Below are positions 1 through 20,345 of a DNA stretch of 64,000 bases, one piece after another. The stretch comes from Pseudogymnoascus verrucosus (Eukaryota). Positions within the stretch are counted from its first letter, which is position 1. Every line of letters starts with the position of its first letter. A program made the translations under genes and the position numbers. The stretch lies in assembly GCA_001662655.1 (NCBI GenBank), contig KV460206.1, one strand, 5' to 3'. Under the pieces are notes generated by a model. The model saw only the letters and a program-made list of their open reading frames with translations. It made no database searches and was not told the origin of the DNA.

Positions 1-732
1 CGGAACGAGGCAATTAATGCACCTTTTTAGGCTTCCATAAGGCATCGTTTCAGGTCGTCTATCACCCATACCCTGCTGAAATTAGGAAGATAATGTGGGT
101 CGCGGATAAAAGCAGCAATAGCTGAGGAGCGGGAAAATACAAGTGAAATGCAAACTACTAGTGGTGTTTACCACTCTAACCTAAGTTACCTTGTCTTGGC
201 ATAGAATTCCACTATTCACAACGGCAGGATCAAAACTAGCTTGAGATGGTCTGTTAGTCATGACTGGCATCTCCTGTAGACGCACAGGCTTGCTAGAAAC
301 GTTAGCCTAGTAACGTTCCAAAGGGCGGCCTCAACACCTCAGTCCGCCCCTGTACGTAAATCTTACCACTTCAGCCTAAGTTATCGTGCATTAGCAAAGT
401 GTTGAACTATTTGCAATTGCAGGAGCGCACCTAGAACGGGATGGTCTCACGTCAGCCTTGGCAAAAGATGTCACAATTTGCAGTATAGGAGCGAAACTAG
501 CATAGGATAGCGAGCTCAGGATCAGGTCAATTAATTATTCAAACTTAGTAGCTATATGGGTATACGTGAAAGATATAACCTTTTTGGATTGTTTATATAA
601 TCTGATATCTGATTAAGTATATAAGAGGGCCTTTAGACCTAGTTTTGATCTAACAGCTCAATCTCAGTACTTCACATAATCGACTAAGAATCTGAACTTA
701 CTTACCTCTAAAAATTTCAAAGTGTGATCATT

Positions 733-1319
733 ATGAAGTGTTCTACTTTTATTGCACTCTTCTCATTTAGTTTCGCTGTCATCGCAGACTTCGACATGTA
801 CCATGGCAAATGGATGGTTCTTGGAGAATTCGAAGTGGATCGCGATATATGGCAGATTTTCCAGACCGATCCCAACTGTGACCAAGCTTGGAATACCCCG
901 GTAACCGATGACAGTTATGATGTGAGTGGGAACAAGCTTGGTGTCCGCTGTGTGGGCAGTGGATGTGATGGTAGTAATGATCCTTGGGATATTGATCTTG
1001 TGGAAATGCATTACTCAAACAACCCCCTTTATCACTGGAGTATGTACTGTCTCGCTTTCCCATATTTTTTTCAGTTGCAAATCTCTACAAATGAACGGAT
1101 GTAACAATCTAACATGATATATAAATAGCCATCTATAAAAATCGCGACAGTTATGCAATGATTGGTCTCGACGGCAGAGTCTACGGCAACTGCGATCCAT
1201 TTCCTTCAGTCAGCTATTACTGTCCACAATTCGCATCATGGATACGTGGCGACCGCAAGTTCCGCTGCTACACCCAGTTCACTGCCGCACAGATCAATGA
1301 AGGAAGAAACAACCACTAG
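733..1319 (+). CDS. Small secreted cysteine-containing protein (effector-like), 2 exons
   Basis: ATG 733 with hydrophobic signal-like N-terminus MKCSTFIALFSFSFAVIA. Intron 1040-1128 (GTATGT..CTAAC..TAG) joins ..NPLYHW to TIYKNRDSY..GNCDPFP..RKFRCYTQF..NH* (TAG 1317-1319). Confidence 0.8.
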
Positions 1320-2373
1320 GTAGCTTCACTGCCGGAGGAATTGCATTTTGAGACAGAGACAACTTGAGCTGGATTGGCAGTACAGCTGTTATCTTATCTT
1401 GGGGTTATTTTGTTCCTTGAACTTCGCTCTCCTACTTGGCATACATTTAGCTTTATATATTGGTATCACGGTGCCTGATTAGTTAGTACCTGGTTGCCAG
1501 ACGCTTGCAGAGCTTCCCATATACAGTTGATCAATCTAGGCGCGATATTAAACTCAAGATGACTTAGTTCAAGAGCAGAAACGTTATCAACCAGACTCGA
1601 AGGCGTGTCAAAAATGATGGGTGGAGACAGCTCTCATCCTGCTCTCATCTTGTGACACATGCCCTACCCCCCCTCTATAAATATGCATAATACAACCGAG
1701 CGGATCCCCCCGTCTACAGTATGTCCGTCTATTTGACTTACCGTGGATGGCACTGCCTGGAATTGATTGGTTGATTGGGCCAACTACCTCCGACATATCC
1801 TTGCCCTTACCTAGTGACTTACGGGAAGTGCTCCGACTTGCTAGTCGAACTGTATGGGGTGGATCCACAGGTGAGGTTATCCGGCTCTACGGGAAGGTCA
1901 TGCTTGAATCTTTTCCTGGACAAATCCAAAAATGATGTCTTATCTTTAAAAATATGTTTTAACATTCCGCCTATAGGAAGTTTGTACGGGTATTCATGAA
2001 GGCAAATTCCGACCTGCAGGAACGACGAAGCTTCCATAACAAGACATCAGAATTAGCCAACCATAAGTCGTTTGTAAGCAGCCATTGGGAGAGAGTGAAG
2101 AGTGAAGAATCAGTTGGGGACTTCCCCTGGTCATTCATGATCGCCGTCGCGAATCCTAACCCTAGTGTTTCCTCTCTGGCACTTTCGCTCATCTCTCTCC
2201 ACTTGCTCTACTCAGATTGTACGTCCAGAGGCTCCAGCCCTGCTGTATACATGGAGAATGCGGAAATGTTTTGGCAGTGGGAAGGAGATGGCATTATGAT
2301 TTTGACAAACAGCGAGAGCACGCAACACTCTTACGAAGTATGGGAAGCAAGAGTGGTGCTGTGCAGTACATAA

Positions 2374-3875
2374 CTCCGAAAACAGTCTTTGTCAGGTAAG
2401 AGCATTTGTGTGAGCAATCCACTGGGCGATTTCTCTATGCCTAGCAACACCATTGGGGTACCGGATGTAGCAACTACTGTAGCGTATGTATTTTGTCGAT
2501 ACTTACCAGTTTGTGCTGCGCTGACGATCAGACAGGCCAATTGCAACACCTACACCTGATGGAACAAATTCATACTGCGGGGAATACTTTAAGGTAGGCT
2601 CTGGCGATGATTGCGCCACTATCGCAACTGAATTTGGCATTGAACGTGACGACTTGTAAGACTTCCAATATTTGTCAACATTGCTATATGTGAGAAGAAA
2701 TATTAAGTCCTCGCTGCAGCTTGTTCCTGAACCCCGAAGTTTGGAAAAACTGCACCAATCTCTGGAAGGACTACAACTACTGCGTTAAACCAGTCGGGAC
2801 TATTACAACATACTCGGGCCACCCGAAGTCGACCTCAACTGTGCCCTTTGTTAATACTCCTGCGACGTCTGTGCCGTATGTAGACCCATTGACAAGATTT
2901 AACACGAGTGCACCTGTCATTCCGCTTGCTAATGATACACGTCGAGACTGTTATAGGTAAGCTCTCTGCACAAATTTGTCAAACAGCTGAGCGGGCCACT
3001 GACTCTGCCTTTACTCAAGTTACTTTTACATAACCAACACGACAGAAACTCCAGACCTGTCTTGCTGGAATCTTGCGATGGCTTATGACGTCGAGCCAGA
3101 GGTGTGTTATGTCATCTTGTACTTTTCGAAGTGTTCCACTAATATAGTTATAGGAAATAGCTCTCTGGAATCCATCTCTTGCGGAGAATGGGACTGAATC
3201 AGGAAGCTCGGGTTCGGATTTGTCTCCTGACTGCGAGCTGTCAGAGAGTGTCTCGTACTGTGCGTTGCTCGCATCGCCGACTACGCGTAAGTACCATCCC
3301 GTTCCAACTGCTACTATCTTGGCATTAGCTAAACAATATCAACAGAATCTGGTAGTGCTATCCAGACTCCAAACCCGAGAGCAATGGGAGAAGTGGCAAA
3401 TTGCACGACTTGGTTCAAAATGAAGACATACTCTACTTGTGCAGATGTTTTAGTTCTATACGGCTTGACACTAGAAGAGTTCTACGCATTTAATCCCTCC
3501 GTTGGCAAGGGCTGCGCAACCATGGCCGCCGGGACTTACTACTGCATATCTAATAAAGCAAATGGAAGCCGTCCAGGCGGTTACGATAATGATGATGATG
3601 ATGATGATCCTACAATGACAAGCTCAGGGACACCTACATCAACGACAACAACACCGACAACAACATCCAGTGGTGGTATTGTCACTCCTACTCCAACGCA
3701 AAATGGTATGGTAGGGGGCTGCAAGGCATTCTACAAGGCTGTTGCTAATGAAGGGTGTGCGGTTATCTGTCAAGCCCATGGAATCGAGCTGGCGGATTTC
3801 TATAAGTGGAATCCCGATGTTGGATCTGACTGTACCAACTTGTGGCCTGATTATTACGTTTGTGTTAAGGCATAG
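2374..3875 (+). CDS. Multi-LysM domain protein, multi-exon, 5' end not found (possibly truncated)
   Basis: Spliced segments GKSICVSNPLG.., PDGTNSYCGEYFKVGSGDDCATIA..FLNPEVWKNCTNLWKDYNYCV, ..EFYAFNPSVGKGC..GTYYCI and ..CKAFYKAVANEGC..DFYKWNPDVGSDCTNLWPDYYVCV are fungal LysM motifs with Thr-rich linkers. In-frame TAA at 2371-2373 upstream, and no signal peptide exon seen. Confidence 0.8.
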
Positions 3876-4442
3876 CCAGATTTAGAAGTTTTTAGACGAC
3901 AGAAGTGGCCTCGTCGTTGTAACTATAAATTAATAGATCTATGTTTTCATAAGTCCCTGAAATATAAGTTGCTAGAAAATAAAAACCCATGGCTTATAAG
4001 GCCAACTTTGGTATGCGCTGTACCTCTAATGTAGTTACGGCAGTGTAGAATTTATTAAATTTCGCAATGCCATTGCAACGAGCCTTAAGGCAACCGGAGT
4101 TTTGGCATCAGCGTTGATAAATACGAATCTACGAGGATTCTATGGCCTAGGCGCGGCCAACTACCGATAAACTGGCTGCGGACAAATCGGCAATGCTTGG
4201 TTATATAAGTTAGGTACCAAGAATACTAATTAATAGTGTTATACAGATAGCGACACAAACTCGTAGACCTGGCGGAGAGACCTGGCGGAGAGATAGGCAG
4301 TTTGAGTGGGGCGATCGAAATATGGTTGGGTGCAAGGAACGACAAGCCAACTAAAGCACCGAGGCCTTAGCGTGGATCAATATTATATAGATAGGCTAGC
4401 CGCCAACTCCACCAATCCAGTACAGAACGACTTTTCAACTCA

Positions 4443-6164
4443 ATGTCGCCTCCAAACTCAGAAACTGCGGAGTCCCCCAGCCATATCAGTCCTATGCTTC
4501 GGCTTCCCCCTGAAATTATCAAGACAATCGTCGATCAGGTTCCCAACAGCACCATAAAAAATCTGCGCCTCACCTGCCGTTTTTACTTGGAAACAGTAGC
4601 TCTGCGGCTTGATCGCGTTTTCATCTCCGCGAACCCGCGCAATGTGGAAGTATTTACTGCCATTGCCAACCACGACGCCTTTCGTGCCAAAATCACCGAG
4701 ATTATCTGGGACGACGCGCTCCTGTACGTCCGGCCTGTGCCGCGTAGCGCCGTAGAAGCGTACTACGGGTCGGACGATGATTATCAAGACTATGCGGAAG
4801 AATCGGACGATGAATGTGATAAGAATGGGATTAATTGGAGGGGTAATGTTCCTGGGTGGTTCCGTAAAGCTTGCCGAGACAACGTTTTCTTCCTAAAGGA
4901 GAAGCGCGATAAATATTTGAACAGACCTGACCTTGTTGCAAGGGCACAACAGGCTTGCGAGCAAATGCCTATGGAAGAGGCATGGGCGTACTACCAACAG
5001 CTAGTGCAACAGCAGCGCGATATCTTGGATTCAAATGCGCATATCATTGCGTTAGAGAAGCATATCGGATCGTTCCTGGCGCTACAGCGAATTGTTATTA
5101 CGCCGGCAGCACATGGATGGATTTACAACCCACTGTACGAAACTCCCATGATCCGCTCCTTCCCCCGTGGGTTCAACTACTATATTCCTCGCACCTGGCC
5201 CGTCCATGACCGTTCTATGCCCGAATGCGACGACTGGAACGAAGATGGTAGTGACTGGCAAGGCTTCCGCACCGTGACACGCGTTCTAGCAGAGGGTAGA
5301 GATTTTGGCAGGGTGGTGGATCTACGCATCGACGTTCATGAGCTGGAGATGGGGCTAAACTCGCGGGTGTTTGAGAAGGAAAATCGCACCCTGAGTGACT
5401 TCGAGGCTGTACTTGCGCGGCCAGACTTTGCACACTTGCAACTTGATCTCATGGTCGATCCGCACTACACGCAGGCAGATGTCTTCCGCAGTGGGCTCCT
5501 CAAACGTGCCCTAGCTCGTGCCTCGTGCGGACAGGGCTTGAAGTCCTTGAGCTTGAGAACGAACATTGACATGTATACGACAATTGATGAGTGCGACTGG
5601 TATGTCCCCCTCACTACGATATTCACACCAACTAGCTATTCGAGGCTTCAGCACTTCGGCCTCGCCCGCTTCTACGTCGAGCAGGATGATCTCTTGGCGC
5701 TGCTAGCCTCCATGCCAAAGACTCTACGGTCGGTTGAACTGAGCATGCTCGAGTTCATGGGCGAGAAGGACAGTTATCGGACACTGCTATGGGGGATACG
5801 CGACACGCTAGGCTGGAAAGAACGAGAACCAAGGCCAACACTTGTCGTTAGTACCGACCTTTCGAATCCCAAACCGGGACAAGCTTTATGGCTCGAGCAT
5901 GAGTTGTATAGTTTCTTGTATGAGAATGGAAGCAATCCGTTTGGAAACGACCCGGCAACTAGAGGTCCAAGTGCTATAAGATTCGGGTTTGGCTGGGAGA
6001 AAGATTGCTTTAATCCTTATCACAAGCGCCCACATGTGGATAATTATGATTTAGCTGATTTGGGCTATATTAAGGGTTCTCGGCCGCGGCCAGTCGCTCG
6101 GCCGACGCAAGACTTACCAGGTCCGGGTAAGTCGTATTTCACCGACGCGCGATATTTATTGTAA
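4443..6164 (+). CDS. F-box-like protein of unknown function (573 aa, intronless)
   Basis: Long ORF with N-terminal LRLPPEIIKTIVDQV..IKNLRLTCR F-box-like motif. Clear paralog at 47733-49352. Confidence 0.8.
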   Translation: MSPPNSETAESPSHISPMLRLPPEIIKTIVDQVPNSTIKNLRLTCRFYLETVALRLDRVFISANPRNVEVFTAIANHDAFRAKITEIIWDDALLYVRPVPRSAVEAYYGSDDDYQDYAEESDDECDKNGINWRGNVPGWFRKACRDNVFFLKEKRDKYLNRPDLVARAQQACEQMPMEEAWAYYQQLVQQQRDILDSNAHIIALEKHIGSFLALQRIVITPAAHGWIYNPLYETPMIRSFPRGFNYYIPRTWPVHDRSMPECDDWNEDGSDWQGFRTVTRVLAEGRDFGRVVDLRIDVHELEMGLNSRVFEKENRTLSDFEAVLARPDFAHLQLDLMVDPHYTQADVFRSGLLKRALARASCGQGLKSLSLRTNIDMYTTIDECDWYVPLTTIFTPTSYSRLQHFGLARFYVEQDDLLALLASMPKTLRSVELSMLEFMGEKDSYRTLLWGIRDTLGWKEREPRPTLVVSTDLSNPKPGQALWLEHELYSFLYENGSNPFGNDPATRGPSAIRFGFGWEKDCFNPYHKRPHVDNYDLADLGYIKGSRPRPVARPTQDLPGPGKSYFTDARYLL

Positions 6165-6420
6165 CGAACCAAGGCTATCTTTCCTTGAGCCAGACTATGT
6201 ATATAGATAGCCCAGCTGAAATCGGGAGTTACAAACTGTTGCATAGACATTTTGGTTCTACTCTAGTTATATTTTGTCCTCAAGGCCAGGATAAATAGAC
6301 TCATATTTCATAATTGTCTTAGAAAACGGAGGATTTTAGCACAACGATATTTACTATAATATTCCATCCTTACTAGTAATGAAGACGTTACATGAATAGA
6401 ATAAGCGTCAGCTCCACGCC

Positions 6421-6513
6421 ACTGCTTTAAGTAAACCTAAGCACACATCAACATTCAGAATAATCAACAACTTAGGCCTCCTCTATAAGAATCAGGGAAA
6501 GCTAGCTGAGGCG
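6421..6513 (+). pseudogene. Isolated TPR repeat remnant of the fungal NLR/kinesin-light-chain type
   Basis: Translates TALSKPKHTSTFRIINNLGLLYKNQGKLAEA, matching the HTSTL..VNNLG.LY..QGKL.EAE TPR consensus of fungal NLRs. No start codon and no further repeats. Confidence 0.7.
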
Positions 6514-6660
6514 TGTCAAGATCTGCCCAATACCAGGACAACCTCAGATAAGAATCTATCGATGCTTAATAATTTCAAGCCTGTAAACGAAGGATCTTCT
6601 AGTTAGCACATACCTAAATATGCGACACGATTTCGAGAATTCTAGGAACCAGGAGTATAT

Positions 6661-7640
6661 GAGGGCAAGATTCGTGTGAGATGGAAATGCGTAAGTACTT
6701 ATTTAAGTACCTAGGAGACATAATACTAATCTAATTACAGAAATGTGGCCAGTATTTGTATGATGACTACGTTGAACTACACCGTGGCGCGGCAAAGCGC
6801 CTAGAAGAATCGCTAAATTAAAAGCCTACGGGCAGAAACACCGTTTCTTCTAGACGTATCCCTACATATTTGACCACCATGTGTAGCCTAATCCCGAATA
6901 TATTCACGAGGGTACGTCGCACTTTTACTGTAGAAGAGCAGGGGCTTCTAATACAACACCTACCACCATCTGTTAGTGTATAGCATGTAGCAAATCCACC
7001 ACTACTGCTAGCCGAAGCATTGTCCTGCTGATCTGCCACAACGTCGGCGTCTATGACAAAAAACTCCTCTAGCTTTCTGTTTGTGATATTAAATTAGACG
7101 AAAAGTTTTTTCGAGCTCTTAACAAACACTACCAATCAAAGTGCAACAAATGGTTGTCGTTCATTTCCCTTCGAACCATAACAGGCATCAAATTTGTTAA
7201 GTTTAAAATGTATAGAAAGAGCTAATCGGTTGATGTGCGTCTTAAGAATGATATACCCCTACCTAAAAATCCAAACTATTGTTACGCTCTTATTCTAATT
7301 AACTTAATACCACTAGTTGGCGAGAATAGGTTAATACACCTTTTTAACAACCTAGACTGCGCTAAAGACGTGTTAGCATGTCTAGACTGCTTTCTGAAGA
7401 AACTTAAGGAGAAGCTAGCATGTAGTGATAAAGTCGTAGTACCTAGATGGGGCATAGATCTAGAAGAAGGGGTGTGTAGCAAAAAGACAGCTATCGTGTA
7501 CATGGTGTGTGCTTGTGAGCTCCATTTAGGGAATACTGTGGACTGTTTTAGGGCAAGGTATCTAAGGTGCTTTTACTGTTAGCGCGTACATGATTGGGAT
7601 CATAGTGCCACTCGTCACGCTAATGCAACATTTGGCTTAA
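6661..7640 (+). pseudogene. RIP-degraded gene of a fungal uncharacterised family with C-terminal TM helices
   Basis: GKIRVRWKC, intron 6691-6740, then KCGQYLYDDYVELHRGAA. Later IPLVGENRLIHLF..LKKLKEKL..WGIDLEEG and GILWTVLGQGI*GAFTVSAYM. In-frame stops and TpA excess. Confidence 0.6.
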
Positions 7641-7799
7641 AAATGAATGGACAACTTTCATAGCCTAAATACTTTCTTATGCAGCAGAGCTATCTAGAAC
7701 AAGCGTATAGTCTAGAAAGAAACGAATTTAAGTGTATCATCAACCTCCGATGCTGTGATTTCAAGTACACGTGTTTGGTTGTAGTCCGAGGACAACACC

Positions 7800-9124
7800 A
7801 TGGCTGACATTACCCATTAAAGGCCTGTTTCTGCCCATGTAGCAGACTCTGCGACAAGGTTAGCATAAGTTCCGGCCTTGCTGTCAAAATTACTTACTTT
7901 CTAAAATATTTGCAGCTCCGCGCCTAATAGCGTATGAAGTTACTTAGCATCTATATCTAGCACGGTATGCAAGCTCTGTTAAGGCGCGGTAAGAAGCAGC
8001 GTATGTCTATGCAGCCGTTCCGTCTGCTACTTAAAAAAGGGCTTTATCTAAGACCGCATCCTTAAGAGGGACTTCAACAACGCTACGATCTAACGTAGCG
8101 TAAAAGAGCTCTTCTAGCTTAATATCAAAAGCATCGTGTTCGTATGCTAAGGTAAGGAAAGGCATAATTAGGCATAGGTGTAGATAGACCTAGTCCTCCT
8201 AGAGCGTTATTGTGACGCTAAGCTATGTTAGTTTTGTTAAGACAGCCTATAGTCTATAGATACTTACAATTCATCCTCCTCGTCTCTGTCCCCCTTCATA
8301 AGTTTAAAGGTAATTGTAAGGCTCATCTAAGGCAGACCGCCTTTTAACATCCTAAGTAAGGTAGAATTTCAAATCCTTAAACGGGTTAGCAAATGTATGA
8401 AGTAAAGCCTAGATATATACTAACTCTATAAGTTATAGCCTCATTGCTATTTCGATATGAATCTAATACAACGACCGCACCTAGCCGAGCTACAGTATAC
8501 GTAAGGCATAGAAGAAAGAAGTGTAGTTTAACGCGGTTAAGTTGGTTTTGGAAACTATGCTTATCCTCTACCTATAAATAATGAATGGGCACTTCAAGGT
8601 CTTACAAATCTGCCATTAGCTTTAGGCAGGCCTTGCTGCTAAGCCCTAGCGAGTTTTTTAGGTCTGTTTGAATCTAGTATCCTTATATTAGCTTCTTTAA
8701 TACTATAGAAGAACATTGACAAGCATCGTCTTACATCTTTCACTTCCTTCACTACTCTCTGTAAAATCTTAATATCGTGTTCATGCTTATACGCTGTTGC
8801 GAGGCGTGTAACGTATAGGCATAAGGTGTTGAGGGAGAGACGCGGGCCTAGCATTCCTTCATGCTTAATTACTAACATCTTGAAGAAGCTCTTCATGCAA
8901 CCCGCGCTTAGGACCAGCGCTGGCTAGTCAATACGCAATGCAAACCTTTTACTCTTCGTTAGCGACTCTTCGCACTGACTTAAAGGGACGGAATCGTACT
9001 CTTGCCATAGTAAGAGGATAGACTTGTATCCTCTCTTTATTAGAGGGGCAACCTTTAGTGGACGTTTCTTCGTTAAGCCCTGCTGCTTGATATCTGCTAG
9101 TAGTCCATCCTTTGAGAGCTTCAT
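7800..9124 (-). pseudogene. RIP-inactivated DUF3435 tyrosine recombinase (Starship captain), 3' truncated
   Basis: Minus-strand exons read LGLSSKACLKLMADL*DLEVPIHYL*VEDKHSFQNQLNRVKLHFFLLCLTYTVARLGAVVVLDSYRNSNEAITYR, then MSLTITFKLMKGDRDEEDEF, ITL*ED*VYLHLCLIMPFLTLAYEHDAF and TSYAIRRGAANILE. These match DUF3435 motifs (Y(T)GARPG, CPI..FL.LA..D.AF, Y..RRG.AN). Stops and P>L changes fit CpA>TpA RIP. Confidence 0.85.
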
Positions 9125-9582
9125 AGCCACTAGTCTCTTTAAAGATCGAGGGACCTAAGAGGCAAGCAAAGAAGTGACCCGTAAAAAAGCAAAATAACTA
9201 AGAAAATTCTCAAGAACAAAGGAAATATAAGAGGTAAGATGCGAGGGAAAATGACAGGAAAGACGAAAGGGAAGACAGGAGAATGATGAGAAGAGAAGGA
9301 GACTGTGTGTGTGGACACCAAACTAGGGGTGGGCCATGCGCCGACATGATGTCCACGGCGTCGTGCGCACGGAAAGCTGAATCCTAGAATCGGAAACCCA
9401 CTGGGACGCCTAACAGTCCAGGATCTGGAAACCAGAAACGGAATGTTGTGTTGGATGCTGCATAAATAGGGAATGAGAAACGAGAAACGGGGAGCTGCTT
9501 TTGCGCAGTCGCGATGTGGTGGTTAAAGCAGCCGGGCCCGCTAACATAGAACGGAATACGGTGACTGGTTAACAGGAATCCG

Positions 9583-9653
9583 GCATCAGTGGTTTAGTGG
9601 TAAAATCCATCGTTGCCATCGATGGGCCCCGTGTTCGATTCACGGCTGATGCA
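9583..9653 (+). tRNA. tRNA-Gly (GCC), intronless
   Basis: Acceptor stem GCATCAG/CTGATGC, D-loop TGGTTTAGTGGTAAAA, anticodon arm CCATCG-TTGCCAT-CGATGG, T-loop GTTCGATT. Downstream T-runs (~9685-9701) fit a Pol III terminator. Confidence 0.97.
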
Positions 9654-10093
9654 AAGTTTCGATCTCCATTTAGGAGTATCATCATTTTGCTATTTTTTTT
9701 TACTGTATCTAGCCAAAGGTTGCTATTGTTGTGGCCGAAATGTAGCGAAAAAAATTAAGTAAAGTACAAGTAGATATATTTTGCAATTGTGAATGTCGTA
9801 CTGCTTGACTGGCATACAATTCAAATCAGCTCTCTCACTTATCTCTTGTCTTTGAAACTGGTTTTTTGTTTTTTTTTCGTTTCGTTCCTGAAATCTGTTG
9901 GTGTTGATTTAGTCTGCTTATTCAGCCTGCTTACCTCACTCAGCCAACCCTGGCTCGGGTAACAGTACAAGATCCTCCCGTTTCTGGGCGACGGTACCCG
10001 CGTACCGTCACCCAGTACCGGGGCCATCCCCGCGTTTGCAGCGCGGAGGTGTGGGGTAGCAGCTGAGGATCCCATGCTTCTCAACAGCTCCTA

Positions 10094-10099
10094 CCTCGG
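10094..10099 (+). promoter_or_regulatory. Possible FarA/FarB-type fatty-acid response core CCTCGG
   Basis: CCTCGG ~120 bp upstream of the acyl-CoA synthetase ATG. A single hexamer, so weak evidence. Confidence 0.25.
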
Positions 10100-10214
10100 A
10101 TGGGATTCGAAGCTGGGCCTGGATGCTTAATGCTTACTTGAGCTGCTGATATCTCTCCTTCTTCACTAAGCTTCTCTCCTGTACAATTGTGGTAATGAAG
10201 AAGAAAGTTACAGT

Positions 10215-12255
10215 ATGATTCGCCCGGTATTTCGATTCAATAGCCCACGGGCCTGTGCGCTTGTGCTTCGTGGAGTGCAAAGACGGGGACTTCTCACTTC
10301 GTCGTATGCCCAGGGACCAACAGAGGTATAGTCTTACCATTCTATTGCCCTCGTGCAGTTATTTCTCAGCATATACTGACTTCGTGCCTCATAGCCACCG
10401 CTACTCGACCAAACAATTCCCGAGCATTTCGCATCTATCGTCTCGAAACATGGCGACCAGAACGCGGTGATCTCGCGCGCCCAACAGACGCGACTCACGT
10501 ATGAGGAGCTAGACCAGAGGAGCAGCTCTGTCGCAGCAGGGCTCCAGGCACAGGGTGTAAAGAAAGGCATGCGAGTGGCTGTTAGCTTGGGAAACAACAT
10601 CGAGTTTGCAGTGGTATGACATGCCGATACATAGCTGGTTGGATTGGATGTGCTGATAGAAGGTGACCAGACAACATATGCCTTGTTTAAGCTCGGAGCG
10701 ATTTTGGTAAGCACAACAGCAGTAGAAAGGTCTTGAGAACATGCGTTTGCTAACTTTATAGGTTCCGCTGAACCCAGCATTCAACTCCCCTCAAGTTATC
10801 TCTGCCCTGTCGCATCTCTCAGCAACACATCTCATAATCGGGACCGAGACCAACCTCCCTTTCAAACCTCCCCGAGAAAATATATCGCTGCTCAAACAGA
10901 TTTCCCCAGATCTCACATCGGGATCTATCAAGTCTGCCTCCGTTCCATCCCTCCAGAAAGTCATCCTCGTCGACAACTCCGCCGGGCGCCTCGATGTCTC
11001 AGACTTCAAATCCACAACCTCCTTCAACGACCTCCTATACACGCAAACACCCCAATCGATAACCCCAGACTCTCCTCTCCACCGAGACGACATCATCAAC
11101 ATTCAATTCACATCTGGCACCACCGCCCTCCCCAAAGCCGCCTGCCTAAGCCACACCGCCATCCTCAACAACGGCTACTTCATTGGCTTGCGCATGGGCC
11201 TCACCCCCGCGGACATCATCGTCTCCCCACCCCCCCTCTACCACTGCTTCGGCTCGATCCTCGGCTACATGGCCTCCGCCACGCACGGCTCCTCGATCGT
11301 CTTCCCCAGCGAAGCCTTCTCGCCCTCCGCCACCCTCCTCGCCGTCCAAGAAGAGCGCGCCACCGCCCTCTACGGCGTCGCCACCATGTTCACCGCCGAG
11401 CTCGAACTCCTCTCCAACGGCACCATTGAAGACAAAGGCTTCGAGCATCTACGCACTGGCATCGCTGCCGGCTCCTCCGTCCCCCCCGTCCTAATGGGCA
11501 AGCTGCACGACCGCCTCAACCTCACCGGTCTGACAATCTGCTACGGCATGACCGAAACCGCACCCGTATCATGCATGACGACTCCCGATGACCCGCTCCA
11601 GAAACGCCTGGACAGCGTAGGCCGTCTCCTCCCGCACGTACACGCCAAAGTCGTATCCGTGACCGATCCAGGCCGCGTCGTCCCCATCGGCGAGTGCGGC
11701 GAGCTCGCCATCGCTGGCTACAACGTCATGAGCGGGTACTGGGGTGACGAGGCGCGGACGGCCGAGGTTCGCAAGACGGAAACGGATGAGCAGGGTCGCG
11801 AGGCTGTGTGGATGTATACGGGTGATGAGGCGCAGATGGATGCTGATGGGTATGTGCATATCACGGGCAGGATTAAGGATTTGATTATTCGTGGGGGCGA
11901 GAATATTCATCCGCTGGAGGTGGAGAATGTGTTGTTTGCGCATCCGCATGTGAGTGAGGCGAGTGTGGTGGGGATTCCAGATGAGAAGTATGGGGAGTGT
12001 GTTGCGGCGTTTGTGGTTGTGCATGGGGGGGTGAGGGTGGATGAGGGGGATGGAGAGGGAGGTGGGGAGGGTGAGGGTCCTATGGTTACGAAGCAGGAGT
12101 TGAGGGAGTGGGTGAGAGGGAAGCTGTCGGGGCATTTGGTCCCGAAATATATATTCTGGACGAAGAACTATCCCAAGACGCCGTCGGGGAAGATCAAGAA
12201 GTTTGAGTTGAAGACTGAGGGTATCAAGCTTCGAGATGCAGGGAAAGGATTGTAA
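10215..12255 (+). CDS. AMP-binding acyl-CoA synthetase (ACSF2-like), probable mitochondrial presequence, 4 exons
   Basis: Arg-rich acid-free N-terminus MIRPVFRFNSPRACALVLRGVQRRGLL. Motifs IQFTSGTTALPKA, YGMTE, YTGD, GRIKDLIIRGGENI and PKTPSGKIKK. Confidence 0.92.
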
Positions 12256-12655
12256 AGGTTGTACATAGCAGCGATGTGCATATTCCCATTTATAAAGTAT
12301 ATACAGAACCATATTCAAAAATAGCTCTACAGAGGTCTCATGTTGCTTGCATCCATTATAGGTTGCCCTGAGGATCCTGAATCACAATGCTGCATCCATC
12401 GTGAGGCTCCCTGTCCCAATGCACTGTTATAAGTCATCGAGTCATAGTTCTCCAGCTACAACCCTTATTTCAAGTCCTTCCACCTCTTAAGCTGCCTTGC
12501 AAGCTACCCTGTTGTACCTGTCCCCCTCGCCACCTCTCCCCTGCCCCTCCATGACGTCACACCCACCTCCTATATATCAACCTCTTCTTCCCAGCCTCCT
12601 AAAATAACAAAATAACACACATAGACCTCTAAAATCCAACTAAACTCCCATCAAA

Positions 12656-13079
12656 ATGTCAACCCACCCAACCCAAACCCCCCTCTCCACCAACACCGCC
12701 CCAACACAAACCACAACTACAACAACCACCACCACCCAGCACGCCCCCAACAACGGCGGTCTAGCGCAGAAAGCCCATTCTGCACTCGCTGCGGTGCATG
12801 GTACGGGCGAGGCGGTACGGGGACACTTTAACGCGGCTGTTGATGATGCGTTTGGCGAGGTTAGTTACGCCCCTTCTCCCAAGTCCCCAGGGGCACGGTT
12901 TTTTTGAGAAGTAAACAGAAAGCTAACGCCTATATTAGTCAAAGGGTGTACAGAAGAACGCGCGTGTGGAGAATGAGGGGTTAAATGAGATTGCGTCGGG
13001 GCATTTTGGGACGGGGACGAAGGTTAGGGAGGGGGCGGTGCCAGGGGATGGGGGGAAGAGGGGGAATGAGGTGGTATAA
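12656..13079 (+). CDS. Small hydrophilic hypothetical protein, 2 exons
   Basis: ATG in AAAATG context, AAVHGTGEAVRGHFNAAVD, intron GTTAGT..CTAAC..TAG, exon 2 SKGVQKN..EIASGHF..NEVV*. Confidence 0.75.
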
Positions 13080-13728
13080 GTAAGAGGAGGGCAATGTATT
13101 GAAGTTTATTGGGTAGGAGGGCGTTTGTTCTCGGTTTTTGTCAGTCACTGTTTTGATAGGACTGGTTAGGATGGTATAGCTTGGGCTGGGAGGTATCCGT
13201 TGGGACGGGGTTTATTGGCTCTTTCATAGGGTTGTTTTAGGGTTTCCATGCCAGATCTGACTCAAATCGGTGCTTGTAGGATGAACAGAATCTATATAGA
13301 CGGCTTTGGAGAGCATATAGCCCATTAATTGGAAATCCATAATATCGATACTTTAAAGTTGAAGATGATATCAAACGTGGGGATCCAGCCTGTAGGGGTC
13401 TCGTAAGCGGAAGGATCCGCGCTTTGGCTAAAATAAACTGCCAATTTTCCACCAAGCTCGTCGGACTCATTTCTTGAGTAACGCGTTTGATGCCACGCAT
13501 ACATTGAATACTAATAGTTCTATACGCCGTTCACCTCAAACTCCCAGATGTCCAAATTGACAATATGGATCCTCGCCTGTTTCAGCCTTCCTGATCCCCC
13601 AAACCACCGTGCCCCGCTAGACACACGACGTGGGGAAGTGCTACGGGCCGGACAGGGGTTACCATGTAAGCACGCGCCTCCCATCTCAATATCCTCCCCT
13701 CGTTATAAGTTAGCCATCTCCTCTCTCC

Positions 13729-15063
13729 ATGCCCTCAATCGCCATCCCCCTCCCCCAGCGATGATCAGCTCCCCCACGGCACCAGCCGCACCCACGCCGC
13801 GGTCGCCCTCAGGCTCCTCATCGCAATCTGGCTCTTCTTCGGCCTCAAACCCTCCCGCCTCTCCCTCGTCCTAACTCCTCCACCGCCGGCCCGCCCATCC
13901 TCCCCAATGTCTTCGACACCCCTCCCCTCTCCTCCCCCGCCATCCGCAGCATCTGCGCCGACACAGTCTGGGACCCCTCCCTAGTATTCACCTGCAACTC
14001 CAGCGTCGGCGGCATCCGCAACATCCGCAACTCCCTCCTCAACTGCGTGCGCTTCACCATCTCCGCCGCCGCCTCCCTCGTCACCCCCCTCATCGTCGTG
14101 CGCAACGAATCCTACACCGCCGCCATCCGCACCGGCATCACAGCACCACTCTCCTACATGTTATCGCCCTCGCACTTCCGCGACTCCCTCGCCCTCTCCT
14201 GTCCGGGCCTAATCCTGCACGAGACTCTCGAATCCGCTATCGCAGGCGCCAAAAACCACGACCCGCTACCGCTTAAGCCAGAATACCTCCAATCCAAGAA
14301 CCTCCCTCGCACCGGCCTCGCCTCCCCCGAAACCTGGAACGCGAACTTCACAACCTGGCTGCACGAGCGCATACCCCTGCGCGCGCTGCCAGCAACGAAA
14401 ATAGTCCATCTCTCGCGCACATACCTCGCCTACCCGACCTACAGCGACGGCGTCAACTTCGCGCATCACTTCGGTTCCATCCTCAAGTTCCGCGACGACG
14501 TCCGGGTTCTCGCTACTAGCGTGCTGCGCGGCCTCGCTGAGCGGTATGGATACAAAGGGGTGCCGGATTTCTTCTTCGGTGCGCATTTGCGCACGGAGCG
14601 GGATGCGAAGCTGGGGTGGCCGGGGGGGGATTGGGTGTATAGCCGGTATGAGACGCAGGCTGCACTGCTTCTGTCCGCAGCCTCCAATGCAAGCCTCCCG
14701 CTCATATACGTCGCCTCCGGGGACCAGGATGAAGTCGCGAAGTTAAGTGCTGAGGCAGCGGCGAAGAATATGACAGTGACGACGAAGTTTGATGTTCTGG
14801 GGAAGGAGGAGGTGGAGAGGATGGATAAGATGAGTTGGGATCAGCAGGGGATGGTGGATTTTCTGGTGATGACGAGGGCGAGTGTGTTTGGGGGGGTGGG
14901 ACATTCGAGTTTTGCGTGGAATGTGGCGTTGGGGAGGCATGTGGTTGGGGGGGAGTCAGGGGAGGGACATTTGAAGGGACCGCAGGCGTTGAATGATAAG
15001 CTCAGTCAGGTTTATGGGAAGCCGGGGGAGTATCCGGAGTATCCGAGTACGCTGTGGCCTTAG
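13729..15063 (+). CDS. O-fucosyltransferase-like (GT-B) protein; 5' end irregular
   Basis: Motifs GGIRNIRNSLLNCVRF, FFGAHLRTERD, IYVASG and DFLVM..ASVFGGVGHSSFAWNVA. Frame open 13765-15063, but the nearest in-frame upstream ATG (13729) meets TGA at 13762. Confidence 0.65.
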
Positions 15064-15410
15064 ATTGGGGGAAGGGGAAAGAGATATGTATGGATATATA
15101 CATCGGGGGAAGGGGAAAGGGATATGTATGGATATATAGAGGTGGATATGTAGTTTTACAGCCTCAATGTTGGATAGTGGGAAGGCAGGAGCGTGGCGCG
15201 ATTATACCATATTTAAACGCAAATAGGCGGAACTGAGGGAGTAGCAAATACTACGCAATTTAATTTGCCTATCTATACTTCTGTTCCTACTCGGTCACAG
15301 CACTGCGGCGCCGATACAATTTTTACTTCCTCTCCCCCTCTCGTTCTCCTTGATCGCGGCTACAACCGCCCTCCTCACCACCTACTCAAAGCCACTTCCC
15401 TAACTATAAT

Positions 15411-16814
15411 CTAGTTCTGGAGCTTCTCCTTGAGGATACCCTTCAGGGTCTCGGCGTCAGCAGCGAACTTGCTGATACCCTCGCGCAGCTTCTCGACGGC
15501 CATCTGGTCCTCGTTGAAGTCGAAGCGGAAGACAGACTCGTCGTTGATGTAGGTCTTCTTCTCGATCTTGAGGTTGTGTGCGTTTTCGGCCTCAAGCTTC
15601 CTTGGGACGGCGTCGGTGGAGTTCTGGAGCTGCTCGAGCAGGTTGGGCTAGGAGCTGTGTTAGTTATGTTACTTTTGAGTTTGGGGGTTAGAACTCACGG
15701 CGATGGTGAGGTAATCGCATCCAGCCAACTCGGTGATCTCGCCGATGCTACGGAAAGACGCACCCATGACGATGGTCTTGTAGTCGTACTTCTTGTAGTA
15801 ATCGTAGATGGCCTTGACGCTAGCCACTCCTGGGTCCTCCTCCTTGGAGTACTCCTTCTTGTTGGCAGCCTTGAACCAATCCAGGATGCGGCCGACGAAG
15901 GGGGAGATGAGGAAGGCGTTGGCCTCGGCGGCGGCGATGGCCTGGGGAAGGGAGAACATGAGGGTCAGGTTGCAGTTGATGTCGTGCTCCTTCTGGAGGA
16001 TCTTGGCGGCCTGGATACCCTCCCAGGTGGAGGCGATCTTGATCAGAACGCGCTCCTTGGAGATACCAACGGACTTGTAAAGCTGGGTACGGTGTCAGTA
16101 CACTGGATTCTAGCTTTGGAGATGGGGAACTCGGAACTCACCTCGATGATGTGCAGGGCCTTGTCAACGGAACCCTTGGTGGAGAAAGAGTAGTGGGCAT
16201 CGACCTCGGTGGAAACACGTCCTGGGACGATCTTGAGGATCTCCTTTCCGAACTCGACGAGGAGGCGGTCGAGGGCAGCATCGACCTGGGCGTTGATGTC
16301 CGATCCGCCGTGCTCCTTGCCGTAAGCGATGGCAACATCCATAAGCTTGGCATACTCAGGCTTCTTGGACGCAGCGAGGATCAGGGAAGGGTTGGTGGTG
16401 GCATCTTGCGGCTTGTACTTGCCGATAGCTGTTCTAGATGTCAGTTATTGAGCGTTGTGGGGTTAGGATGGCCGTGTTTGCGTCGGATTGCGATGTCGCT
16501 GCCGTTGAGTGGGGGTTTGTTGGGATGGCCCGGATGGCGGGGTATACTCACAGACAAAGTCACCTAGATGAGCAGTTAGCTGGCTGTTTTGGAGAGGAAA
16601 AGTTTGCAGAGAAGCTTACCAGAGTCAGAGACAACGGTCTATAGCAAAGATTCCACGTTAGCAATCGTTTTCAAGGTCGTGATGATGGTGAAGCTTTGGT
16701 GGCGGGGGGAGGTAAAATTGTTGACGATTGCATCCTCGATACCCCACCAAAACCGGAGACGGAGTAGTAACTTACAGTGCCAGTGGCCTTGAGCTGCTCC
16801 AATGAGTTGGACAT
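15411..16814 (-). CDS. TAL1: Transaldolase, multi-exon
   Basis: [89 protein letters not shown]. Confidence 0.97.
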
Positions 16815-17899
16815 GATTGCGATGTGTGTATGTGAAGCTTTAAAATTGAATTAATTCACAGATTATAATGTGATGGAATTGGTGTGTTACAGGAAGATGG
16901 AAGATTGTTGTTGATGTTTTATTGTGACGTGGGGAGTGTGGGGGGGGGGGAGGTAAAGTAGTTATGAGTAAGGGACGGACTACTACTACAGATGTATGAT
17001 GAGGGGGAGCGAGGGGCGGCGTCCTCGGAGACAGCTAGCGCGGGGTCTTCTTGGATGGACATTGGTGGCACAGTATCTGTTACAATTTGTTACAAACAAG
17101 AGCATAATCGAGACAAGAAGGAACTACATTAAGTTAGTAATACAGTATAAGCAATACATATCTTTGTAAATCTCTCGAATCACCTTTCAAACCTCTCACA
17201 ATACATATTAGAAACGACATCGAAATCGCTCTTTCTTATCGACTCTCCTATTCGTCAATCTTCAACAATCTTTGCCACACAACCTTTCACAACTTCTTAG
17301 TCATCTCCCAAGCTCCCATCTAAGCTCACTATGTCATACACGTGCATAACGATGGGCTGCTACCACGGAAGCCTGTCGGCCGCACCAATCGCTCGTTTTT
17401 AGCCTAAAAGTATATACTATGCTGTACGCTGTGTCGAGTTTCTCCGGCTGGAAAATACTCGATTGAACCTTATAGGAAACAATAAGAAAAAATAACCTTC
17501 TAGGTGGTTCCAGACTTTCATGTATGGTTCATGAAAAAACGAAAGATTCAGATGACCTAAGGCACACCCGGTGATGCTGACTGACAGCCGGCCGGGCGAC
17601 AGTCTACCGGGTGACAGTCGACCGGTTTGGTAACTATTCACACTACATACAAAATTCCACCACGAGATCCCACTCGAGTAAGTCATTGTTCCCGTTCCGA
17701 TCCCAACCTTCATAGCAAACCCCGACTCCATCGTACAGTCCGCATACAGTCCAAGTCCGTATGTACGCATCCCCAAATCCCGCATTGTATACCAATCTGA
17801 TCATTCCTCCGAATCCGCCCATTGTCCCCAATCCAGACCCCAAACCCAAAAGCGCCTCATGTCCATAAATCGTGTCTCGTCGGCTCCGGCGCCGGCGCC

Positions 17900-18686
17900 C
17901 TACTTCCCCATCCACATAGCCGTCCCAAACCCCAGCTTGCTGGCCATCCTCTCCCTCTTCGTCCTCTGCTTCTTCTCCCGGAACCTGTTCCAGCTCCTCT
18001 CTCTCTCTTCCCAATCGTTCATCTGGGCTATTTACAATTAGCACTTATCCATCATCCCCGCACCCATAACTCCCCCATCCCCTCGCGCATTCCCCCCCAA
18101 GAAAATTAAAAGAAACAAAACGAAAAGGAAAAAAAATCTCACCAAGCAACCAATCCCACCTCCTATCCTCCCTCTCCAAAACCTCCACCCCCTCCCTCCT
18201 CAACCTCTCCCTTCTCGCCTCCCCCGCCGCCTCCTCCCCCACCAACTCCCCATCCTCCTCCGGCCTCACCCTCCTCCCCTCCACCCCCCCCACCCCAAAC
18301 TCCCTCTCCTCCCTCTCCCTAACCACCATCAGCGCCGCCCTGATCGGATCCCGCGTCACTCTCGCCGCCTCCAACAGATCCGCCGTATCGCGCTCCGTAG
18401 CTGCCTTCGCGCGTCGAGCAGCGACGGCGTCGTAGTGCCGCGAGGAGGGGGTGGAGTGGCGCGACCAGGAGGTGGGGTAGTAGTCTGCTAGGGAGGGGGT
18501 GCGGGAGGTGCTTTGGGGGGGACGGGGGGGGATGGTGGAGTAGGAGGGGGCGGAGGAGAAGTAGGAGGGGGCGGCAGAGAGGATGGATGCTGTTTCGATG
18601 TCGTGGGGAGGGGAGGGGCCGCGGAGGGTGTAGGCGCGGGGGGTGTAGGCGGGGGGAGGGACGAGTGGGGTTGGAGTAGTCGACAT
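17900..18686 (-). CDS. Conserved-looking fungal hypothetical protein, 2 exons
   Basis: PPPAY/APSY-rich N-terminus, EDGELVGEEAA..REDRRWDWLL, intron, then AQMNDWEERERSWNRF..MGK*. Confidence 0.75.
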
Positions 18687-19447
18687 TTTGAGTTTGGCTA
18701 GATAGTGATAATATGATAGTTCGGATGGTGGATGGTTGTGGGCATCGATGTGCGCATCGATGGGTTTGCGGGGTCTTGAAGGCTGCGTGAGTGAGAGGTG
18801 TGGTGGTGACGTCAAACTCACTCTATCGTGGTGGTATCGGAGGAGGAAGGCTGTGTGATAACAGCCTTTATGTAGGAGATGAGAGATGATAGATAAATGA
18901 GAGAGCTCACACGACAGTTGAAGGAGAGAGATGAATACTTAACTCGGCGTCATGACAGATGACCCTTATTGGAAGGATTAAATCGTCAGATAGCAGTACT
19001 GCCCTACCAGCCCAGCCGCCCAGCCGTGTATGGCGCAGCAACGCACCACTCCTTCGAGGTGCGGGGAAATACGGCCTTCGCCAACCATAACCTGGGGAAG
19101 GCTCTGGGCTAAGTATGAATACCCGCGAAAAATGCCTCGATGGGTCAGGGCTTGTTAATATTGCGGCTTTTTATGTGGGAGTTGAGAAATGTTGTTATCA
19201 TTCTGGGCGTATATGGGGTGGGGGATCAGAGGTGCGTACTGTAGCCTTGCGGGTGGTCCGGAGCTAGAAGCACATGCATATTAAACTAGAAGGCAACCAG
19301 AAGGCCCACACTGTAGCCTGCATTAAGCTATTTCCGTAAAATTCAAAAGAGTTCATGATTAACAGTTCATGATCAACAAGTACAGTCTCATTATGATATA
19401 CACGCAATCCCCCAACTCCAATCCCCCCCCCCAAAACAACCCCCCCT

Positions 19448-20345
19448 CTACTTCCTCCCCCCCCCCAAATGCCACCCAAACACCTTCCTAAACACCTCCA
19501 TCCCCCCCACCTCCACCACATCCCCATGACACGGAATGATCCTCTCAAAATCCCACCCCCCAATCCTCCTCGCGCTCTCCCCAAACCCCTCCCTATTCGC
19601 CGCACTCGCCCCATACCAAAGAAACCTCTTCTGCCCCAACGCCCTCCCCTGCGTCGACGTCAACGCCCCAAACAACCTCGTCATGATCCCCTTATCCGCC
19701 GCCTCCCCGGTTCGCGAATACTGCTCCGTCGCTGGCAGATTAAACAAGTAGTCCGCCACGATCAACGTGCGGTCCGGCTTGTAGCAGAACACAAGCTCTT
19801 TATTCATATGCTCCGGCACATACTCGTACTCGAAATCCCGATCAAACTCCTCCGATATCCTAACCTGCCCCTTCAACTTCTCCGTAAACACCGTCGCGAA
19901 CGGCACCTGCGCGCCGTGGCTGGGACTCTTGGGGTCCTTGGCAGCAGCGGCGCGCTTCTCAGCCAGTCCTTCGACGCCGATGACTTGTGCGGAGGGGTAG
20001 GCGCGCGCCCATTCGCTGACGAAGATGTGGTGCTCGATATCGGGGGCGATGATGTATTTGAGGTTATCGCCTTTTTCTTGCAGCTTGGCGCGGACTTCGG
20101 GGGTGAGGGCGGTCGGGGAGAAGACGGAGAGGGCGCCGGATGTGAGGCGGACTGGGAACGAGGGATTAGCCGGTTGAGCGAGAGAAGGGGGGGGAGGGTG
20201 GGGGGGATATACCGATTGTGCCGCGGCCGCCGACGCGGATGAGACCGAAGCGCGCGAAGGGGACGGAGAGGGTGGTGATGTTGGGGGTGATGTCGCGGAT
20301 GACCATTACGGCGGAGGGGTTGCTGGGGACGAGCTTGGACGTCAT
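19448..20345 (-). CDS. Metallo-beta-lactamase-fold protein (DUF4336-like), 2 exons
   Basis: MTSKLVP..PFARFG..GGRGTI/VRLTSG..IIAPDIEHHIF..TLIVADYLFN..WDFERIIPCHGD. Confidence 0.85.

Follow-up and report, generated by a model that had tools for sequence, protein, structure and literature searches.

The 64,000 nucleotides of Pseudogymnoascus verrucosus contig KV460206.1 analysed here (the window) carry the remains of a captain, the tyrosine recombinase gene of a Starship transposon, beside an intact transfer RNA gene, tRNA-Gly(GCC). The captain belongs to the Moya family and is separated from the tRNA by a conserved stretch of about 0.46 kb, here called the leader. In our reading, held with a probability of roughly 0.55, dead captain, leader and tRNA constitute a repeated mobile unit, and the Leotiomycete sub-clade of Moya to which it belongs most likely integrates site-specifically at tRNA genes with its 5' end facing the tRNA. 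An earlier note on this DNA had described a recombinase destroyed by repeat-induced point mutation (RIP) at the start of a candidate giant Starship that had used the 5' end of the tRNA-Gly gene as its target. The account of the recombinase has held up well, and the size and target of the element have to be revised.

Homology to an intact relative bears out a DUF3435 recombinase read on the minus strand from the ATG at 9124, although the window copy's own Pfam match to this domain lies in only one of three minus-strand frames and below the cut-off (E=0.0061, 16 bits against 25.8). The first 170 amino acids (aa) translated from this ATG are 73% identical (E=1.4e-44) to P0001, an intact DUF3435 protein of 725 aa from Pseudogymnoascus sp. 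VKM F-4519 (KFZ20126.1; DUF3435 129 bits by Pfam), which was the sole match among 387 candidates. The exons of P0001 were aligned to the window by tblastn at 64-78% identity (Table 1); its residues 350-725 found no counterpart in the window, and only the N-terminal ~48% of the gene remains. The tblastn alignments contain at least 10 premature in-frame stops plus one frameshift near 8348. A reading of all frame changes as frameshifts was rejected, as most of them coincide with intron-sized gaps, one of which has the GT, CTAAC and AG signals of an intron. The R-containing boxes "ARLGAVV" and "AIRRGAAN" are still readable, the region of the final His and Tyr (7900-7820) is only 41% alike, and the stops break the gene. 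This segment is a dead relic of a captain-type tyrosine recombinase gene, inactivated by RIP and deprived of its 3' half.

The RIP-destroyed state rests on two measures. Within the first 10 kb the composite RIP index exceeds zero only in the 500-bp windows spanning 6501-9000, besides 1-500 (0.11) and 4001-4500 (0.01). When the coding part was compared with a homologous copy on a metagenome contig (L003, described below), 112 of the 192 mismatches were C>T or G>A changes in the window copy, 42 were the reverse transitions and 38 were transversions, and 55 of the 112 stood in a CpA context. The leader shows no such excess (15, 13 and 18 in the same three classes), and the RIP signal ends approximately at the recombinase start codon.

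A word-based search with residues 1-520 of P0001 returned five clusters among the 8000 candidates scored, all of them DUF3435 proteins. Their sources are Leotiomycetes or unnamed; P. destructans and P. verrucosus each contribute intact proteins. Three homologues (KFZ20126.1, KFY66947.1 and RDL41173.1) are entered as captain-type "tyr" genes of fam08 in sheet S4 of PMC11162782, and three further homologue accessions found no entry in the supplement of that paper. Family 8 is named Moya in its Table 1 and corresponds to clade 2 (Gluck-Thaler & Vogan 2024). The pseudogene in the window is thus a fam08 member by proxy, through the three listed homologues (P0001, P0002 and P0003), and the captain label given to it earlier is justified, intact homologues being part of the captain set of the program starfish. 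The clade is known but uncharacterised. According to PMC11162782, fam08 is enriched in Leotiomycetes (37 of 67 species) with only five elements resolved, and 21 Pseudogymnoascus genomes hold 5-33 captains each with one resolved element in total. In the main text of that paper Moya is named once, in Table 1, and no discussion of its target site was found there. The other intact relatives examined (P0002, P0003 and P0005) match DUF3435 at 91-149 bits (Pfam). Cys/His repeats lie in the C-terminal part of intact relatives (residues ~540-700 of P0001, also P0003 and P0005), a part that is absent from the window copy and may bind DNA. UniRef names two intact relatives "C2H2-type domain-containing", and Pfam scans at E<=0.1 (P0001) and E<=5 (P0003, P0005) detected no zinc-finger domain.

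The captain does not stand alone. The tRNA-Gly(GCC) gene is intact and is both the single tRNA that ARAGORN identified and the sole RNA-family match to Rfam in the 64-kb window; relaxed ARAGORN settings gave 16 calls in the window, with split-tRNA calls disregarded. From the ATG at 9124 to the tRNA the distance is 459 bp, in agreement with the ~460 bp estimated earlier, and the two genes diverge with the 5' end of the captain facing the tRNA. A T-run lies 31 nt downstream of the tRNA in unique flank. Rfam detected no hidden RNA gene in the leader at 9125-9582. The motif GTTGC occupies tRNA nt 30-34 in the anticodon loop (window 9612) and is the only GTTGC or GCAAC in 9100-9700. A 14-nt repeat at 7517 and 9661 is one of seven chance-level repeat families in the window.

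Table 1. Positions of the features discussed, numbered from the first letter of the window
Feature	Position	Strand	Evidence or remark
RIP-mutated, 3'-truncated Moya-family (DUF3435) captain pseudogene	7813..9124	-	~aa 1-348 of 725; Pfam, blast, tblastn, L003 alignment
P0001 aa 1-112	9124-8735	-	tblastn
P0001 aa 114-196	8673-8425	-	tblastn
P0001 aa 195-339	8381-7896	-	tblastn
P0001 aa 323-348	7900-7820	-	tblastn, weak
First intron of recombinase, 54 nt	8945-8998	-	starts GT, holds CTAAC, ends AG
Leader/spacer ("module A") between tRNA and recombinase start	9125..9582	-	L003 conservation; several contigs per relative
Variable joint of leader and recombinase unit	9144..9199		49-nt indel against L003; includes the 9190 edge of the block skipped by relatives
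Intact tRNA-Gly(GCC)	9583-9653	+	ARAGORN; Rfam 57.1 bits
6,797-bp block replaced by 257 other letters in X2, X3 and X19	2393..9189		joint 2392 to 9190 in 3 of 4 runs
RIP-like DNA left of truncation point, no recombinase C-terminus	6165..7812		composite RIP index, six-frame Pfam, L003 homology end
AMP-binding enzyme gene, first in conserved right flank	10391..12255	+	Pfam; collinear contigs in X2, X3 and X4
Intact 573-aa open reading frame, weak sub-threshold F-box match, inside variable block	4443..6164	+	Pfam; ~87% counterparts on other contigs in X2, X3 and X4
Multi-exon cysteine-rich gene, LysM-like repeats (weak label)	2525..3875	+	exon-like open stretches; repeats partly by eye

The same arrangement recurs at an unrelated locus. 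Positions 5520-7326 of L003 align with window 9654-7813 at 82% identity in a single block that takes in the tRNA, the whole leader and the 5' half of the captain. The homology ends one base past the 3' end of the tRNA and, at the other end, at 7813. Most 100-nt bins of the leader are 84-91% identical, and the bin beside the tRNA 74%. Beyond the tRNA 3' end, window and L003 each have their own flank and their own T-run. The 5.5 kb of the other L003 flank gave no tblastx match to any part of the 64-kb window, and an orthologous locus was rejected on that ground. The two tRNA-Gly copies both look functional because they differ by a compensatory pair in the acceptor stem. An intron-bearing tRNA-Pro(UGG) gene at L003 4498-4594, ~0.9 kb beyond the tRNA-Gly, places the L003 unit within a small tRNA cluster.

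An association with tRNA genes extends across the relatives of this captain. A profile of five proteins yielded 10 loci (L001-L010) from metagenome contigs, out of 66 pattern matches, and the same relatives were sought in genome contigs (19 pattern matches) and viral contigs (21) and none was found. L001, L006 and L010 start inside the gene, and L004, L005 and L009 have only 0.1-0.4 kb upstream; after the removal of duplicates (L005 equals L007, L009 equals L008 and L010 approximates L008), the window and four other groups are left with 1 kb or more upstream. In all five a tRNA gene or a remnant of one lies 0.41-0.86 kb upstream of the recombinase start. Three are intact: the tRNA-Gly(GCC) of the window, that of L003 (65% aa identity) at 409 bp and an intron-bearing tRNA-Val(AAC) of 47.5 bits in L007 (37%) at 734 bp, all divergent from the recombinase. 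In L002 (41%) nt 1-33 of a tRNA-Gly, broken in the anticodon loop within GTTGC, lie at 856 bp in co-directional orientation toward the gene (blastn E=5.8e-5). In L008 (32%) a weak remnant consisting of a T-arm, the acceptor 3' strand and a T-run lies at 664 bp and points toward the gene. Intact tRNAs expected by chance in five times 1 kb number 0.045, and the probability of three or more is ~1.4e-5; if window and L003 are counted as one event, the probability of two or more is ~8e-4 at one tRNA per 100 kb. Beyond the five 1-kb windows, one more tRNA was seen in the 117 kb of non-redundant DNA examined. The link to tRNA genes is real at the level of the clade, and the test proposed in the earlier note, whether close homologues have a tRNA within 1 kb, gave a positive answer. 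We infer that the association reflects target choice.

The Rfam model Plastid-ycf2 5' untranslated region scored 21 bits on window 9583-9654 (-) and 18.7 bits on L008 1387-1464 (-). Both matches fall on the antisense of tRNA-like DNA and look like a tRNA look-alike artefact of the model.

The locus itself differs among related genomes. Contigs of four runs (X2, X3, X4 and X19) were compared with window 1-20000 at a likeness of at least 80%, and uncovered stretches, including 1-2001 in X4 and 6671-8004 in X3 and X4, were not counted as evidence. In X2, X3 and X19 a block of 6,797 bp is replaced by 257 other letters (Table 1). Most of the departures from the window are common to X2 and X3, and X19 seems mixed, so that effectively one related lineage, not three, shows this difference. 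X19, which has about twice as many letters as the other runs and looks like a mixture of two related genomes, contains pieces that match the block with only 1-8 differences per ~450-600 nt, as well as a contig with the joint of 2392 to 9190. The recombinase gene begins 66 bp inward of the right edge of the block (ATG at 9124) and reads into it. The bridging contig retains leader 9190-9545, ending 38 nt before the tRNA, without the recombinase (36 mismatches and 21 gaps in 356 nt). The locus thus shows no clean empty site; the difference is an insertion or deletion that falls within DNA derived from the element or on its border. To the right, the flank 9624-20000 is collinear in X2, X3 and X4 and begins with an AMP-binding enzyme gene, which upholds the earlier statement that core genes resume right of the tRNA.

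Elsewhere in the same runs both parts of the unit recur. Two contigs each in X2 and X3 cover the 5' end of the recombinase, the leader is covered by several contigs per relative (five at position 9419 in X4), and because several contigs cover each, recombinase and leader are multi-copy in the relatives. This, together with the presence of RIP, is why the unit is taken to be a repeated one. Three contigs each in X2, X3 and X4 agree with the window as far as nt 20 of the tRNA, still resemble a tRNA until about nt 36 and continue in unlike DNA. A 16-nt motif from these loose ends in the relatives did not occur in the window, even with 3 mismatches allowed, nor as an exact match in the 10 loci. 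The first intron of the recombinase is kept in the window and in L003 and is cleanly absent from one DNA contig each in X2 and X3 (joint 8944 to 9000 with one letter between); its presence differs among copies.

If this reading is right, the recombinase, the leader and the intact tRNA-Gly(GCC) would make up a three-part mobile unit, and the recombinase would act by site-specific recombination at tRNA genes, always with its 5' end toward the tRNA. The DNA directly 5' of the tRNA is shared by window and L003, and therefore the junction does not lie at the tRNA 5' end; the proposal that the element used this end as its target fails on the L003 homology, which runs on through all of leader and tRNA as far as the tRNA 3' end. 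Either the junction lies in or at the tRNA, or leader and tRNA together form a repeated target with the insertion point at the far edge of the leader, at 9190-9200. Under the former, the GTTGC of the anticodon loop might be the crossover point and the element the source of the tRNA's 5' part; under the latter crossover would take place near 9190, and in neither case at the tRNA 5' end. Three features that coincide in position favour the leader-edge version: the 9190 joint of the relatives, the L003 indel and the point where RIP stops. A more specific version is tentative: the Leotiomycete Moya sub-clade with C-terminal Cys/His finger repeats would integrate into tRNA genes, crossing over at GTTGC in tRNA-Gly(GCC), and would bring in the leader and the 5' part of the tRNA so that the gene is rebuilt. 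The only resolved Leotiomycete Moya element, botsin1_s03468 of Botrytis, is 58 kb long, carries NLR, FRE, DUF3723 and patatin genes and shows "gttgc" at both insertion edges; its captain starts 93 bp in from the edge (PMC11162782).

Several observations weigh against integration at tRNA genes. The GTTGC shared by the tRNA-Gly anticodon loop and the Botrytis insertion edges may serve as a lead only, being 5 nt long at a Botrytis site that may or may not be a tRNA. The only junction seen against the relatives, at 9190, is 393 bp from the tRNA and lends no support to the earlier placement of the junction at the tRNA 5' end. Retention of the leader without the recombinase in relatives is as compatible with a leader-internal target or a deletion derivative as with integration in the tRNA, and their leader diverges by ~10% from the window, against 1.6% for the flanks. 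The compensatory acceptor pair would be simpler if each tRNA derived from one source. No terminal inverted repeats were found at the block edges, the window contains no far end of an element, and no tRNA-derived repeat was found elsewhere in its 64 kb; the far end may lie outside the window. The sample is small, with 10 loci from one scan and five usable groups, and both the type of tRNA (Gly or Val) and its orientation (divergent or co-directional) differ among relatives. The L008 remnant is below the tRNA model, with only weak matches to tRNA-like models in Rfam. The half tRNA of L002 could be an internally deleted gene; it is ambiguous between insertion junction and internal deletion because the DNA that follows it is no more like the window's tRNA 3' flank than shuffled sequence is (score 26, shuffles 21±2.5 with a maximum of 29). 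L002 may be less than fully independent, because a homologue of the window's AMP-binding gene lies in its neighbourhood, though the genes are ordered differently there. In L007, core genes for mevalonate-diphosphate decarboxylase and a haem lyase lie ~3 kb behind the recombinase and leave little room for cargo. Finally, the starfish authors ran tRNAscan on 222 Starship insertion sites, and no tRNA class was found mentioned in the text of PMC11162782.

The AMP-binding homologues just mentioned (~70% aa identity) lie near tRNA-Gly at L002 600-2443 and window 10391-12222, on opposite sides of the tRNA.

Four other explanations compete with target choice. The element might carry a complete tRNA-Gly as its terminal cargo and insert elsewhere, the tRNA being a passenger and not the target. 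The homology between window and L003 does span the entire tRNA and leader, the two halves of the acceptor stem co-vary within each copy, and leader and tRNA stay together in the relatives; the homology stops exactly at the tRNA 3' end, however, with the T-run terminator supplied by each locus, other relatives have a tRNA-Val or half a tRNA in this place, and the right flank adjoining the tRNA is conserved in X2, X3 and X4, all of which leaves a passenger tRNA unlikely. The pattern might also come from chance or survivorship, undirected insertions persisting where they lie near tRNA genes as in a safe haven. Relics of transposons often accumulate near Pol III (RNA polymerase III) genes, a tendency that speaks for survivorship, as do the choice of this window from very many windows screened and the differences in tRNA type and orientation between loci. 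We nevertheless regard it as improbable: the five usable loci are all associated, always on the 5' side of the recombinase at 0.41-0.86 kb, two unrelated loci share spacing, orientation and a conserved leader, and the probability of the association by chance is ~1e-5 to 8e-4.

The chances are just as slim for a resident, no longer mobile recombinase in old synteny with the tRNA, for which the 6.8-kb difference would be a deletion in the relatives. Such a gene would account for the L007 copy among core genes, for the AMP-binding homologue that L002 shares with the window flank and for the 257 letters that replace the block in relatives, which retain the leader and show no clean joint. RIP requires duplicated DNA, however, and the several copies in relatives, the unrelated flank of L003 and the unlike gene order around the L002 tRNA also count against a resident gene. 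Very improbable, finally, is the arrangement proposed in the earlier note, a giant Starship that reaches left past the start of the window with its 5' end docked at the 5' end of the tRNA-Gly. The captain does face the tRNA, the DNA left of the tRNA is lower in GC content and partly variable, and Botrytis has a bona fide Moya Starship of 58 kb. The variable block comprises only 6,797 bp, however, the L007 core genes resume behind the recombinase after ~3 kb, the DNA directly 5' of the tRNA is common to the unrelated L003, and window 1-2392 is joined to the leader in relatives. Scans of open reading frames and six-frame Pfam scans of 1-4400 and 6000-7900 detected no DUF3723, FRE, patatin or NLR domain in 1-9200, and the only yield of these scans was a weak F-box match along with faint ones to TPR_10 and LysM. 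Direct repeats or target-site duplications of at least 7 nt common to both block edges were likewise not found, except for AGGTAAGA, which is 42 nt off register.

Integration at tRNA genes would have parallels in several known systems. Elements of bacteria and archaea that integrate at tRNA genes usually reconstitute the 3' portion of the gene they enter, and a partial repeat of the tRNA is left at their far end. The P. verrucosus relic resembles them in pairing a tyrosine recombinase with a tRNA gene left intact; unlike them, it lies on the 5' side of the tRNA, no partial tRNA repeat was found in the window, and half-tRNA junctions were seen only in L002 and as loose ends in relatives. Ty1 and Ty3 in yeast and TRE5 in Dictyostelium insert tens to hundreds of bp upstream of tRNA genes in a similar geometry, but they are retrotransposons tethered through contacts between integrase and Pol III factors, and we know of no contact of this type for tyrosine recombinases. 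Dada transposons restore their target gene. Like the proposed unit they are eukaryotic DNA elements inserting specifically into multicopy small-RNA genes, and they differ in enzyme class and hosts. They are found in animals, where they target tRNA and small nuclear RNA genes (PMC8869645). Cryptons share with the unit that they are small fungal tyrosine-recombinase elements; DUF3435 repeats were first annotated as Cryptons, and DUF3435 captains form a clade separate from Crypton recombinases (PMC9156397).

Among Starships, Moya elements are the nearest, the closest intact homologues of the window copy being fam08 captains and the Botrytis captain lying 93 bp from its edge where the distance here is 66 bp (9190 to the ATG). 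The window copy differs from them in being truncated and mutated by RIP, without defined ends or typical cargo. The families that target 5S rDNA (Voyager, Enterprise and Arwing) are described as captain elements at a dispersed multicopy Pol III gene with the captain at the target-side end, in which they are alike. They insert inside the 5S gene, an event predicted to be disruptive, whereas here three of the five neighbouring tRNAs are intact and the candidate target is a tRNA. Among the 222 insertion sites reported in PMC11162782, 26% are AT-rich and 23% are 5S rDNA. The authors of PMC9156397 draw the analogy to bacterial tRNA genes themselves, and mentions of tRNA in that paper were found only in this analogy; in PMC13004909 and the Tangerine preprint they were found only in the methods. 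A full-text literature search found no description of tRNA-associated Starships or captains.

Starships transfer large gene blocks inside fungi as well as from one fungus to another, and the landing site decides their persistence and the disruption they cause. The niches described so far are 5S rDNA and AT-rich DNA; tRNA genes would be a third if a captain lineage is tied to them, and one that mirrors bacterial genomic islands. The combination of tRNA-Gly, leader and captain would then provide a handle for finding unresolved Leotiomycete elements, and target recognition by captains would become directly testable with a target of 71 nt. Should the gene-restoration version hold, the lineage would represent the first eukaryotic tyrosine-recombinase element with the tRNA-attachment strategy of bacteria, including restoration, and tRNA genes would join 5S rDNA as a second class of Pol III target used by Starships. 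As a relic, the copy in the window has no importance of its own beyond pointing to this pattern.

The remainder of the block holds little that is readily named. In the RIP-like DNA left of the truncation point a faint, sub-threshold TPR_10 trace at ~6457-6525 (+; E=0.005) may be the relic of an NLR-type gene. For the multi-exon cysteine-rich gene, Pfam gives LysM only at E=0.15, on 2525-2656. The end of this gene and the 573-aa open reading frame (3772-6074) have ~87% identical counterparts in X2 and X4, where other and longer contigs keep the two in this order (joint 3875 to 4412 with 259 letters between); the pair has been either duplicated or relocated in the organism of the window. Left of the block, 223 bp at 1843-2065 are missing from X2 and X3 contigs (joint 1842 to 2066, with 5 letters that fit either side) and could represent a small insertion, for example a miniature element.

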